Origin: a virus
Lineage: Duplodnaviria > Heunggongvirae > Uroviricota > Caudoviricetes
IMG/VR virus record: IMGVR_UViG_2657244986_000007
Coordinates: 1-17,428 of that record
DNA length: 17,428 nt
Strand: one strand, 5' to 3'
In this document: positions 8,814 through 17,428 of the stretch, one piece after another
How positions within the stretch are numbered: position 1 is the stretch's first letter
Layout of the letters: each line of letters opens with the position of its first letter
The notes under the pieces: model-generated
Databases searched by the model: none
What the model saw: only the letters and a program-made list of their open reading frames with translations
What the model was told of the DNA's origin: nothing
Made by a program: the position numbers and the translations under genes

Positions 8814-10166
<1,353 letters not shown>

Positions 10167-10328: not shown

Positions 10329-10359
10329 AGGCTCTTAAAAATTTAGCCCTGAAGAAGGG
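10329..10359 (+). promoter_or_regulatory. nutL (boxA plus boxB hairpin)
   Basis: GGCTCTTAAAAATTTAGCCCTGAAGAAGGGC: boxA-like GCTCTTAAA and the boxB stem-loop GCCCTGAAGAAGGGC. Confidence 0.8.
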
Positions 10360-10470
10360 CAGCATTCAAAGCAGAAAGCTTTGAGTAGCGCGAAATGCAG
10401 CTGCAAGGCAGCAACCGTGGAGATAAGCATCACGGCGCGTTACTCAAAGCTAACTGACAGGAGAATCCAG

Positions 10471-11368
<898 letters not shown>

Positions 11369-11401
11369 TTAAAAGACAGGCATACTAATAAACACTGCAC
11401 T

Positions 11402-11429
11402 GTGTATTCATTCCAACGAGTGAATACAC
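11402..11429. repeat. Perfect 9-bp inverted repeat, GTGTATTCA-N10-TGAATACAC
   Basis: Seen directly in the sequence. No U-tract on either strand, so it looks operator-like or RNA-structural rather than a terminator. Confidence 0.6.
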
Positions 11430-11491
11430 GGAGCAATGTCGCTCGTAACTAAACAGGAGCCGACTTGTTCTGATTATTGGAAATCTTCTTT

Positions 11492-11519
11492 GCCCTCCAA
11501 TGTGAGGGCAGTTTTTTTT
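11492..11519 (+). terminator. Intrinsic terminator (tL-like) 13 nt upstream of the next start codon
   Basis: GCCCTC-CAATGT-GAGGGC followed by AGTTTTTTTT. Confidence 0.7.
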
Positions 11520-11532
11520 GACGGAGTAAACG

Positions 11533-11781
11533 ATGATAAAAACTGATTACCCTGCAGAGCTTAAACAAAAAGTAATAACAGCAATTAAATGCTCTTTTAT
11601 CTCATGTCGTACAGATGAAGAACGATATGTCGTTGAGTGTGCAATTGTCGAGTTTCTCACAGCGATGGAATTTACCGCTGCAGAATCAATAGATGTATTA
11701 AAGCAATCAGACGGAAATGATATTGAAACGGATGATGTTATTGACCGACTAATAAAATCATTCGAAGAAGAAATAGAGTAG
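11533..11781 (+). CDS. Small acidic protein, 82 aa, unknown function
   Basis: MIKTDYPAELKQKVITAIKCSFISCRTDEERYVVECAIVEF...DGNDIETDDVIDRLIKSFEEEIE, with an acidic C-terminus. GGAG Shine-Dalgarno upstream. Confidence 0.65.
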   Translation: MIKTDYPAELKQKVITAIKCSFISCRTDEERYVVECAIVEFLTAMEFTAAESIDVLKQSDGNDIETDDVIDRLIKSFEEEIE

Positions 11782-11864
11782 CCGCCTGAGCGCGGCTTTA
11801 CCGCATACCAATAATGCTTCACGAGAGGCATTTTCGTTATGCAATCAAATATAAGGAGTTACCC

Positions 11865-11999
11865 ATGATGCACTTTCAGCTCGCGGGTAGCGGCGTCATG
11901 TCCGCTTTCTACCCGCACGAATCTGAATTATCACGCCGAGTTAAACAATTAATCAGAGCAGCAAAGAAACAACTGGAGGCGTTATGCGCAATGAAATAG
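11865..11999 (+). CDS. cIII: CIII-like small protein (putative FtsH-inhibitor helix), 44 aa
   Basis: MMHFQLAGSGVMSAFYPHESELSRRVKQLIRAAKKQLEALCAMK. Its central amphipathic helix resembles lambda CIII (ESLLERITRKLRDGWKRL). AAGGAG Shine-Dalgarno upstream. Confidence 0.55.
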   Translation: MMHFQLAGSGVMSAFYPHESELSRRVKQLIRAAKKQLEALCAMK

Positions 12000-12136
12000 C
12001 CATTAATCACCAGATGCTTCGTGCTGCACAGAACAAAGCAGTAATAGCCAGATTTATTGGTGATTCCAAAATGTGGCTTGAAGCAAATAAAGCGATGAAA
12101 TCAGCCATCAACCTTCCGTGGTATCGCAGGAAATGA
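11984..12136 (+). CDS. Small protein, 50 aa, possibly Kil-like
   Basis: Hand translation: MRNEIAINHQMLRAAQNKAVIARFIGDSKMWLEANKAMKSAINLPWYRRK. GGAGG Shine-Dalgarno upstream; overlaps the cIII-like 3' end in another frame. The Kil assignment is a recollection of a FIGDxKM-like motif, unverified. Confidence 0.4.
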   Translation: MRNEIAINHQMLRAAQNKAVIARFIGDSKMWLEANKAMKSAINLPWYRRK

Positions 12137-13581: not shown

Positions 13582-14061
13582 ATGAAAGTCTGCTCAAGAT
13601 GCCATCAACAGAAGGAAGAAAGGGACTTTCAAATCAGAAGAGCATCCAGAGATGGATTAACTGCCGCTTGCCGGGCTTGCCTGGCTGAATACGACAAAGA
13701 ACGCGCTGGATTGCCACATCGAGTATCAGCAAGGAGAGAATATCAATCATCGGAACGCGGAAGAGAACGGTGTAACGCAGCCAAAAAGCGGTTCATTCAG
13801 AGCAACCCATGGAAAAGAAAAGCCCACATCATTGTGGGTAATTTTTTGCGCGACGGTAAGCTAATCCGACCACCACAATGTGAGTGCTGCGGATCAGAAT
13901 GTAAACCACAGGCGCACCACTGCGACTACAGCAAACCAACCGATGTGATGTGGCTCTGCAAGTCATGTCATGTCGAGTGGCACAAACATAACAAACCTAT
14001 CTACCCAGACGAGGAACCAGTAACTCTCCCCTTCCCTCGTCACGCTATTCACGCAATTTAA
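13582..14061 (+). CDS. HNH-family endonuclease, 159 aa
   Basis: Cys pairs CSRCH, CRAC and CECCG, plus ...QAHHCDYSKPTDVMWLCKSCHVEWH, consistent with an HNH/zinc-binding nuclease motif. Confidence 0.7.
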   Translation: MKVCSRCHQQKEERDFQIRRASRDGLTAACRACLAEYDKERAGLPHRVSARREYQSSERGRERCNAAKKRFIQSNPWKRKAHIIVGNFLRDGKLIRPPQCECCGSECKPQAHHCDYSKPTDVMWLCKSCHVEWHKHNKPIYPDEEPVTLPFPRHAIHAI

Positions 14062-15189: not shown

Positions 15190-15239
15190 GCGATCGGTTA
15201 AGTGCTATAGTAATGCGCTTTTGTATTTATGGAGTGAAT

Positions 15240-15938
15240 ATGAAAAATATCCTACTGGCATCATTGTTAGTGGCATCGCCGGGTGCATTTGCAGCCAGCT
15301 TTGACTGCCAAAAGGCTTCGACAGCAATCGAACATAAAATCTGCGATAACGAACGTCTGTCAAAATTAGACGAACAGCTTAGCTCTGCCTATTCTAGTGC
15401 CCTCAAAGAAAACCCAGAGAACGCAGACACCATAAAAATGGTTCAACGTCAGTGGGTAAATATGCGTGGAAAACTCACTGATAATAAGGCTCTGGAGCTG
15501 GCTTATCTTATCCAAATTAATGGCCTCAAAGGTTTGGGGAGTTCAGTCAGCGTAACAGCGGCCAATGAGATACCCACGTCGACGCAGAAACATTCTGAAG
15601 AGCAGGAAGAAACAAGTAAGGCAGAAGTTAAGTCGGTCAAGAACGGCAATAAGCTAACCTTAGAGTCATTCCGAGCTAAATATGTAGAAGTAGATGGTGA
15701 GTATTACAGCACGACATCCATTCCTAGAGGCAGTTCGTTCTTGTTCACTTGCGCCAGTCGTATTGCTGATGACCAAGTGAATGTTTGGAAGAAACATGCA
15801 GCCAAAGAGGGCAAAATCGACCTATTCTTTGAGGTTGAGAATCACTTACACACTGCTATGTTGAACGCCAATTTCCAGAAGTTGAATTCAGACCCTGCCA
15901 AAAGAGGTATTTGTAATCTGATTAACGCAGTGCCGTAA
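15240..15938 (+). CDS. Secreted protein with an N-terminal LprI-like (DUF1311, lysozyme-inhibitor-like) domain, 232 aa
   Basis: Signal peptide MKNILLASLLVASPGAFA, then FDCQKASTAIEHKICDNERLSKLDEQLSSAYSSALKE...QRQWVNMRG, the hallmark DUF1311 pattern. AT-rich gene. The track start at 15213 is an extension. Confidence 0.75.
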   Translation: MKNILLASLLVASPGAFAASFDCQKASTAIEHKICDNERLSKLDEQLSSAYSSALKENPENADTIKMVQRQWVNMRGKLTDNKALELAYLIQINGLKGLGSSVSVTAANEIPTSTQKHSEEQEETSKAEVKSVKNGNKLTLESFRAKYVEVDGEYYSTTSIPRGSSFLFTCASRIADDQVNVWKKHAAKEGKIDLFFEVENHLHTAMLNANFQKLNSDPAKRGICNLINAVP

Positions 15939-16144: not shown

Positions 16145-16945
16145 ATGACCATCCACTTTCACGGCAGCCCAATATGGGGGGATGAGCATGCCCCTACAGA
16201 TATGCTGATTAAAGCCCTTTACCGTGATGGTGGGGCTTTTGTTTCATTTGCCAGACCAGAGCAGATGAAAAAGATTGCCATGTTCCCTTGTGATATACGC
16301 CTTGATAACGGCGCTTTTAGCGACTGGATGAAAGCATTAAAGAAAGGCACTCCGGTAGACTGGAGTAAGAGGCGAGCAAAATTCTACGACTTTGTTGGGA
16401 AGTGGTTCAGCAGAATTGAATGGTTTCTTATACCTGACGTTATCGAAGGGACAGAGGCAGAAAACGACGAGCAGATTGAGTTGGTTCCTGATTGGCTAAA
16501 ATCAAAAGCGGTTCCGGTCTGGCATACCGACGAATCAATTGAACGTCTTTTACGCCTTTCTGGCAAATTTGAATGGGTGGCGATTGGATGCTGCGGCCCA
16601 CACAGGCACATACGCTCTAAATGGTGGGAACAGAGAATGGATGAAGTTTTCACTGAGCTTTATATCAATCGTAATTTGAAAGTGAAAATTCATGGTCTTC
16701 GAATGCTCGACGTGAGAGTTCTTGGTATGTATCCGTTCGCCAGTGCGGATTCTACTAATGTTGCTGTTAACGTACCGAAGACAGAGAAGCGATTTCCTGA
16801 GATTACTGACAAACTGGCACGTACAGCTGTACTTCGCGCTGCTATTGAAAAGGTGCACCCGCCATCGATATCAGCATGGGTAGACAGAAAGATGAGAGAG
16901 CCGGCGCAAGCCGGTTTTTTATTTGAATTCACCGACGCCGCTTAA
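16145..16945 (+). CDS. Protein of unknown function, 266 aa
   Basis: Long ORF preceded by GGGGA. No motif I can assign with confidence (no P-loop, no PP-loop, no HTH recognised). Confidence 0.75.
   Translation: MTIHFHGSPIWGDEHAPTDMLIKALYRDGGAFVSFARPEQMKKIAMFPCDIRLDNGAFSDWMKALKKGTPVDWSKRRAKFYDFVGKWFSRIEWFLIPDVIEGTEAENDEQIELVPDWLKSKAVPVWHTDESIERLLRLSGKFEWVAIGCCGPHRHIRSKWWEQRMDEVFTELYINRNLKVKIHGLRMLDVRVLGMYPFASADSTNVAVNVPKTEKRFPEITDKLARTAVLRAAIEKVHPPSISAWVDRKMREPAQAGFLFEFTDAA
16899..16924 (+). terminator. Intrinsic-terminator-like hairpin with a GCAA tetraloop inside the last 15 codons of the 16145 gene
   Basis: CCGGC-GCAA-GCCGG followed by TTTTTTATTT. Confidence 0.55.
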
Positions 16946-17227: not shown

Positions 17228-17428
17228 ATGCAACACGAACTACAGCCTGATTCACTGGTTGATTTGAAATTCATCATGGCCGATACTGGATTCGGTAAAA
17301 CCTTCATCTATGACCGGATTAAGTCCGGAGACCTTCCAAAAGCCAAAGTTATCCACGGGCGAGCAAGATGGTTATATCGTGACCATTGTGAATTCAAAAA
17401 TAAGCTCTTAAGCCGCGCCAATGGGTAA
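17228..17428 (+). CDS. Excisionase / AlpA-family small DNA-binding protein (Xis-like), 66 aa
   Basis: ...LKFIMADTGFGKTFIYDRIKSGDLPKAKVIHGRARWLYRDHCEF... looks like an AlpA/Xis-type HTH. It sits at the distal end of the leftward operon where xis is expected; integrase would lie beyond the window. Confidence 0.55.
   Translation: MQHELQPDSLVDLKFIMADTGFGKTFIYDRIKSGDLPKAKVIHGRARWLYRDHCEFKNKLLSRANG

Follow-up and report, generated by a model that had tools for sequence, protein, structure and literature searches.

The 17,428-nt stretch of phage DNA analysed here (the window) represents an E. coli lambdoid prophage whose early-left operon encodes an 82-residue acidic protein (ORF 11533-11781, + strand; PHROG 14587). 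The ORF is a genuine, selected gene and a self-contained, exchangeable single-gene cassette with no conserved partner gene; its product represents an orphan fold within a well-known counter-defence hotspot. We found no experimental or homology basis for the name 'anti-restriction protein' under which it circulates. The reading we favour, tentatively, is an early accessory protein that depends on N, works on its own and binds a single, narrow target in the host or a prophage, most plausibly a defence or exclusion factor.

The pL operon of the prophage

The 2.1-kb segment 10300-12400 of the window is 100% identical to E. coli ST12468 (NZ_CP103694.1), in which the prophage adjoins dsdC. The early-left operon is transcribed on the + strand. 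A cI-type repressor gene (9133-9765) is listed first in the early-left order, followed by a nutL-like site (10330-10360, + strand) with a boxA-like element, GCTCTTAA (10331-10338), and a boxB, GCCCTGAAGAAGGGC (10346-10360). This boxB is a single exact match to the lambda nutL boxB sequence, with 0 matches in 200 shuffles. In the E. coli record of identical sequence, the antiterminator gene N (10471-10794, + strand) bears the annotation 'antitermination protein N'. Beyond a structured leader (11387-11526, + strand) that ends in a terminator comes the ORF, and the next gene downstream is cIII, encoding the FtsH inhibitor (11865-11999, + strand; Pfam cIII, E 4.6e-30; also annotated by PGAP). It is followed by kil, encoding the cell-division inhibitor (11984-12136, + strand; Pfam Lambda_Kil, E 1.7e-20; also PGAP), and then by genes for a Rad52-like annealing protein, ssb, an exonuclease and an Abc2 anti-RecBCD protein.

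Between N and the leader lies an opposite-strand gene (10787-11290, - strand) that overlaps the end of N and encodes 167 residues counted from a GTG codon (the PGAP start is at 11281). It matches PHROG 1244 (E 4.6e-53), a family of no known function, and gave no significant match in Pfam or PADLOC. The gene belongs to the backbone and not to the cassette, because sibling prophages keep it whatever fills the neighbouring slot. In its product, a Gly/Ala-rich N-terminus is followed by a coiled-coil middle part and, at the C-terminus, a CxxC...CxxC motif. Its place, downstream of N on the opposite strand, is presumably that taken by sieB in lambda, and it may be an exclusion gene or a moron, expressed in the lysogen. 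Upstream of it, two copies of TCTyrCTGTAGGGGTA with 34 nt spacing (11293-11342) could form an operator.

Several further genes of the distal operon were noted in passing. A 159-codon Cys/His-rich ORF (13582-14061, + strand) separates ssb from the 3'-5' exonuclease gene; its CxxC, HHCD and CKSCH motifs suggest an HNH-like endonuclease, and it has neither a PGAP annotation in the identical E. coli record nor a Pfam match. Three more genes lie at 15213-15938, 16145-16945 and 17228-17428. Their products include a secreted LprI-like protein (lysozyme-inhibitor family) and a 266-residue protein that Pfam, NCBIfam and PADLOC assign to no family; the last gene encodes a TorI-like excisionase at the prophage end that adjoins dsdC.

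A structured leader and terminator precede the ORF

A terminator scan placed a tL1-like intrinsic terminator, consisting of a hairpin and a T8 tract, at 11490-11519 (+ strand). The stem (11490-11511) has 8 pairs, 5 of them G-C, closing a loop of 6, and is followed by the tail TTTTTTTTGA. Direct reading of the sequence gives a Shine-Dalgarno GGAG at 11523-11526 (+ strand) with a 6-nt spacer to the ATG. The first-pass annotation had placed this early gene directly behind an N-gated terminator, and that placement holds: the terminator, T8 included, ends 14 nt before the ATG, with N and nutL upstream.

A promoter scan of the + strand found nothing resembling a sigma-70 promoter from the terminator to the ATG, from which we infer that the ORF is reached from pL by N-mediated read-through. 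A lambda-type N-dependent delayed-early gene is characterised by N, nutL and an intrinsic terminator that no promoter follows, and by this analogy the ORF would be such a gene. Kapi1_017, which encodes the identical protein, was undetected in lysogen RNA-seq (PMC12922286), as fits a repressed early gene.

The 140-nt leader is predicted to fold at -51.9 kcal/mol (z = -5.0 relative to shuffles). Its elements are a 22-nt inverted repeat (11392-11439), a hairpin of 12 bp (11402-11429), another hairpin and the terminator. Sibling prophages that lack the ORF retain the leader at 97-100% identity whatever the flanking cassettes, and it is also present in 27 of 28 viral contigs carrying close homologues of the ORF. 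An Rfam search of the window found no RNA family. The leader may have a role beyond termination, for example as a processing or regulatory RNA element.

ORF 11533-11781 is a selected gene

The ORF has an ATG start and 82 codons followed by a TAG stop. Its length alone is within chance, since an antisense ORF of 94 codons overlaps it. The + frame is nevertheless coding, as three kinds of evidence indicate. Substitutions relative to a 68% identical homologue number 21/14/42 at codon positions 1/2/3, and relative to a 64% homologue 29/16/53; the protein matches the PHROG 14587 profile over its full length (residues 1-82 on positions 1-82 of 82, E 2.2e-48); and AlphaFold2 yields a confident model (see below). 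A chance ORF or decaying remnant, which the longer antisense frame and the lack of a known phenotype might suggest, is already refuted by the conservation data and merits practically no weight: besides the third-position bias, intact homologues with identities down to 30% occur in many phages, the structural model is driven by covariation, the Shine-Dalgarno sequence is correctly spaced and the identical protein is found on at least 1000 contigs.

The protein contains 20 Asp/Glu and 9 Lys/Arg residues (net charge -11, pI 4.27). The acidic C-terminus described in the first-pass annotation of this small protein is borne out by residues 59-82, with 10 acidic and 2 basic residues; residues 28-58 contain 8 acidic and 2 basic residues.

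The N-cIII region contains two insertion slots

Three sibling prophages with the same N/opposite-strand-gene/cIII/kil backbone (93-99% identity) served for comparison with the window. Slot A (junction 11382/11387, upstream of the terminator leader) is empty in the window and contains Ral, or Ral plus an Nmad5 gene, in the siblings. Slot B extends from approximately 11518/11527, at the terminator, to 11765/11780, before cIII, and is occupied in the window by ORF 11533-11781. In the siblings, slot B is either empty or filled by a P22 GP17-family gene (PF17420, E 7e-56) or a DUF2528 gene, and homology with the window resumes at 11765-11780. In one sibling (locus L010), segment 1862-2155, with the GP17 gene at 1867-2178, replaces window positions 11527-11764 between identical flanks. 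The leader (11387-11526) is thus a backbone element separating slot A from slot B. A short G+C-rich hairpin over the stop codon of the ORF (11780-11797, + strand; the scan match is listed on the - strand) sits at the distal cassette junction.

The ORF had earlier been described as lying where lambda encodes Ral. It does lie in the same N-cIII stretch, but Ral and the ORF do not share a slot, the Ral slot of the siblings being upstream of the terminator and the ORF downstream. A chimeric Ral-leader-ORF query was covered over at least 80% of its length in 19 E. coli genomes, compared with 58 genomes containing the ORF, and full-length Ral is upstream in 8 of the 28 close-homologue IMG/VR contigs. 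Because they stand side by side in these genomes and contigs, Ral and the ORF are co-occurring neighbours, not alternatives; the positional equivalents of the ORF are the gp17-family and DUF2528 genes. The order leader-ORF-cIII-kil is kept in 27 of the 28 contigs, on several N alleles.

The 64% homologue is also directly upstream of cIII and kil. More distant homologues occur in other contexts: Pantoea prophages have one close to xis/int, a Citrobacter phage has one following a helicase-primase gene, and in Skatevirus siphoviruses the homologue opens a short early operon that also includes a ParB-like gene and RusA. No partner gene is conserved across these contexts, and the protein therefore most probably works by itself on a component that the cell provides.

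Salmonella phage SeSz-2 (Skatevirus; locus L020, 30294-30518 and 31523-31783) carries two paralogues, gp63 and gp60, in one operon; they flank the ParB-like gene, and the second occupies the place of the Bas77 DNA methyltransferase gene (locus L003, 6266-7063). A 'nucleotide modification' gene of the Nmad5 family is a frequent third cassette of the N-cIII region, with or without Ral, and is found directly upstream of the leader in loci L012 (1728-2351), L019 (Kapi1; 1643-2326), L027 and L038. We also considered whether orf184, the gop-beta-cII trigger from the Ral region described by Silas et al., is the slot-B DUF2528 gene; with a BLASTP E of 0.21 and no Pfam match, it is not clearly so.

An orphan family with a predicted four-helix fold

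Proteins identical to that of the window are HK446 gp36 (AFH20664.1), Kapi1_017 and ECP1_057, all members of PHROG 14587 together with the Skatevirus homologues. The ORF is carried by 58 of 5426 complete E. coli genomes, of which 2308 match the surrounding 2.1-kb N-to-kil stretch. A word-indexed single-protein search retrieved near-identical sequences only. An exhaustive phmmer search of 1.8 billion cluster representatives (50% identity) gave only about 17 proteins at E<=1e-3, a profile search gave 52 proteins, none functionally named by its source, and a scan of genome contigs with a 6-sequence alignment gave only 3 loci. The hosts represented, through phages and prophages, are Escherichia, Salmonella, Klebsiella, Shigella, Pantoea, Citrobacter and Pseudescherichia, and on these searches the family appears to be an orphan confined to phages and prophages of Enterobacterales. 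A 99% identical copy on a 3.7-kb contig (locus L022, CAKRSU010000058.1) of an 'Oxalobacter' metagenome-assembled genome most likely reflects a binning error rather than the true host.

In a 40-sequence alignment all 40 members are very acidic, with net charges of -8 to -20. Residues A17, C25, G61 and D67 are invariant; an acidic residue is kept at E40, E51, E65, D68 and D71 in at least 90% of members (85% for D49, 82% for E79), and position 11 is Lys/Arg in 93%. AlphaFold2 run from this alignment, in place of a poor single-sequence model (pLDDT 59), gave a mean pLDDT of 91.7 and a pTM of 0.80, with helices at residues 7-23, 28-44, 49-58 and 64-81. The structure prediction that the first-pass annotation had called for thus yields a confident four-helix model, and the protein is predicted to be soluble and strongly acidic. 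The conserved acidic patch maps to the start of helix 3 and along helix 4 of the model, with an additional Glu within the hydrophobic IVEF motif of helix 2.

Searches of Pfam, NCBIfam and PADLOC gave no significant family for the protein, and a PDB sequence-profile search gave nothing below E 0.08. The best Foldseek match in the PDB had an E of 0.95 and the best TM-score was ~0.46, with no DNA mimic among the best 50 matches listed; in BFVD, Foldseek matches were limited to the protein's own family. Three motif readings were discarded. An EF-hand-like reading of DGxDxETDDxID was rejected on inspection, the Gly and Ile positions being a misfit. A metal site formed by Cys20, Cys25 and Cys36 is not a family feature, Cys25 alone being invariant. 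Mimicry of the SSB C-terminal tail was set aside because the C-terminus is not conserved.

Comparison with Ral, gp17 and DNA-mimic proteins

The protein resembles lambda Ral in being the product of a small, early, N-dependent, dispensable pL accessory gene in the variable N-cIII stretch. It differs in composition: Ral has 66 residues and is Cys-rich and not notably acidic. The Pfam Ral model (PF11058) detected nothing in the 82-residue protein at E<=1, whereas the genuine Ral of a sibling prophage scored 1.4e-47, and hhalign of the family profile against genuine Ral gave a probability of 0.06%. The P22 gp17 family (PF17420, 'Superinfection exclusion gene product 17') is likewise a small early accessory and occupies the same slot B, but has no sequence or profile similarity to the protein (hhalign probability 0.2%; no Pfam GP17 match). 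The Pfam name associates gp17 with superinfection exclusion, and the role ascribed to it in P22 is escape from exclusion by a resident prophage.

Ocr, ArdA, Arn and T7 gp5.9 are also small, helical, early phage proteins, with a pI of about 4, and work by stoichiometric binding. The charge of the 82-residue protein and its family is that of a DNA mimic, but neither fold nor profile similarity connects it with Ocr or ArdA (hhalign probability against Ocr, 0.3%).

The label 'anti-restriction protein' is given by PHROG 14587 and by RefSeq phage records. The original GenBank records of HK446 and Kapi1 read 'hypothetical protein', as does PGAP for all E. coli copies, and 'antirestriction protein ral' was used by the ECP1 submitters only. 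A 21-codon Ral remnant lies just upstream of the leader in ECP1 (locus L029, 2259-2321) and in loci L028 and L036, and its proximity to the ORF may account for the ECP1 name. Most likely the 'anti-restriction' label is a positional annotation that spread through databases, probably from one 'ral' label.

Published experiments bearing on function

Silas et al. (bioRxiv 10.1101/2023.04.06.535777) synthesised and screened 200 accessory genes, listed in their Supplementary File 3. Among them, UDP0194 corresponds to AFH20664.1 of HK446, which matches the window protein at every residue. The UDP numbering follows the orf numbers, as UDP0001 (Ocr), UDP0002 (Arn) and UDP0184 (orf184) show. The UDP0194 entry contains no comment and no database-hit count, unlike those of the phenotype genes that we checked (orf7, orf24, orf48 and orf184). 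UDP0194 is not mentioned in the text, nor is it among the genes named there as conditional-lethal or as validated counter-defence genes.

The screen used single chromosomal copies in a pooled format, in MG1655 and ~20 ECOR strains, with phages T2-T7, P1 and lambda. For MG1655 with unmodified lambda, the EcoKI test, the authors' experiment log reads 'ardA, ral, ocr are hits' in 3/3 replicates; Ral relieved EcoKI restriction, and the 82-residue protein is not noted there as a hit. Cell-death triggering is reported for Ocr and ArdA and not for the 82-residue protein; across MG1655 and the ~20 ECOR strains, the text and the authors' notes report neither a counter-defence nor a cell-death phenotype for UDP0194. 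The lack of reported toxicity argues against inhibition of an essential host function. Literature searches on the protein's identifiers led only to the Kapi1 transcriptome paper and to the supplement of Silas et al.

Additional evidence comes from Bas77, in which a 41.6% identical homologue is the first gene of an early operon. In published raw data, to be read with the homologue's only 42% identity to the window protein in mind, the efficiency of plating of Bas77 was 0.04-0.08 on EcoKI (one site), 6e-4 to 1e-3 on EcoCFT_I (two sites), 3e-5 to 4e-5 on EcoRI, 1e-7 to 5e-7 on EcoRV, about 1e-6 on EcoCFT_II and 1e-5 on EcoP1. It was 0.05-0.1 on Old and about 1 on RexAB, PifA and Fun/Z. Because Bas77 is restricted by six type I-III RM systems and by Old, and is unrestricted by the remaining systems in any case, none of the tested defences is known to be countered. 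Taken together, the screen and the Bas77 data make a general anti-restriction function unlikely.

Discussion

If the reading that we tentatively favour is right, the ORF would be transcribed from pL by read-through of the terminator via N/nutL antitermination and, following the lambda paradigm, in lytic growth only. The protein would act alone, binding stoichiometrically to one protein encoded by the host or by a resident prophage. The binding surface would be the conserved acidic patch (E40, D49, E51, E65, D67, D68 and D71), and the target would most plausibly be a defence or superinfection-exclusion factor of narrow spectrum whose surface is basic and binds nucleic acid. The protein would not be a Ral-type or Ocr-type inhibitor of classical restriction-modification systems.

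The neighbourhood is consistent with counter-defence, the genes found beside the ORF or in its place being Ral, Nmad5 and gp17-family genes. Location in the hotspot is circumstantial evidence for a counter-defence role, as such sites harbour toxins, exclusion genes and functionally unrelated genes too. Acidity is common among small phage proteins. The stretch is a recognised counter-defence region, covered by the 'Ral' and 'RalSupEx' accessory regions of Silas et al. (bioRxiv 10.1101/2023.04.06.535777), and the identical protein was chosen there for screening. Overall, candidacy of the 82-residue protein for an anti-defence role is reasonable, and a narrower anti-defence or counter-exclusion role is possible.

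Classical anti-restriction, by a DNA mimic like Ocr or ArdA or by a functional analogue of Ral, is in our estimate improbable. The low pI, the net charge and the family-wide acidity would suit a mimic, yet no Ral or Ocr profile and no PDB fold matches the protein. Early expression beside the Ral slot would suit an analogue of Ral, but Ral has a separate slot and is itself present beside the ORF in the 19 E. coli genomes and 8 of the 28 viral contigs. The PHROG, RefSeq and ECP1 names are most simply explained as positional annotation that spread. [quoted passage not shown] For EcoKI the anti-restriction reading is largely refuted, and the Ral-like role proposed in the first-pass annotation does not survive the profile, slot, fold, screen and Bas77 data.

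A host-takeover or regulatory role outside immunity is a possibility that we doubt, though we judge it nearly as likely as the narrow-target reading. The protein would bind a non-essential host protein (a nucleoid protein, protease adaptor, recombination or repair factor, or RNA polymerase accessory factor) and tune the lytic programme or lysis-lysogeny. The ORF is an early gene directly upstream of cIII and kil in 27 of 28 contigs and in the 64% homologue; against a functional tie to these genes, it is swapped with gp17-family and DUF2528 cassettes and not kept with cIII/kil, and its distant homologues are unlinked to either. The target would have to be common to Escherichia, Salmonella, Klebsiella, Pantoea and Citrobacter, which a housekeeping protein fits as well as a defence protein, and the published screen reports no counter-defence phenotype. 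Conversely, the gene can be dispensed with and is rare (in 58 of 5426 genomes), some backbones have an empty slot, and Pfam, PDB profile and Foldseek searches gave no similarity to known host-takeover proteins. Esc protects the phage from its own SieB exclusion protein, and the 82-residue protein might similarly be an antidote to, or partner of, the product of the opposite-strand gene at 10787-11290, which is 240 bp from the ORF in the window and presumably at the place of lambda sieB. We reject this very improbable idea on the independent distributions of the two genes: the 167-residue gene occurs with a gp17-family gene, a DUF2528 gene or an empty slot, and the ORF occurs without it in most viral contigs, in Kapi1 and in ECP1. 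The remaining probability belongs to roles beyond those named here.

The protein, the anti-restriction hypothesis and the negative screen are already public, and the value of the present analysis today is mostly corrective. The available data contradict the 'anti-restriction protein' label of PHROG 14587 and RefSeq, repeated in papers (for example, for Kapi1_017), and 'function unknown' should replace it. The arrangement of the N-cIII region in two slots shows that a position beside Ral does not amount to equivalence to Ral. It is conceivable, although on balance unlikely, that the family is a new fold family of phage counter-defence proteins, neutralising a defence or exclusion system absent from or masked in the published screens. 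The acidic patch and the invariant Cys25 would then be the binding site, and the protein would serve HK446/Kapi1-type phages in a role like that ascribed to gp17 in P22. If the target were found, the protein would add one more phage counter-defence inhibitor, with a fold of its own, and could expose the defence or exclusion system that it opposes.
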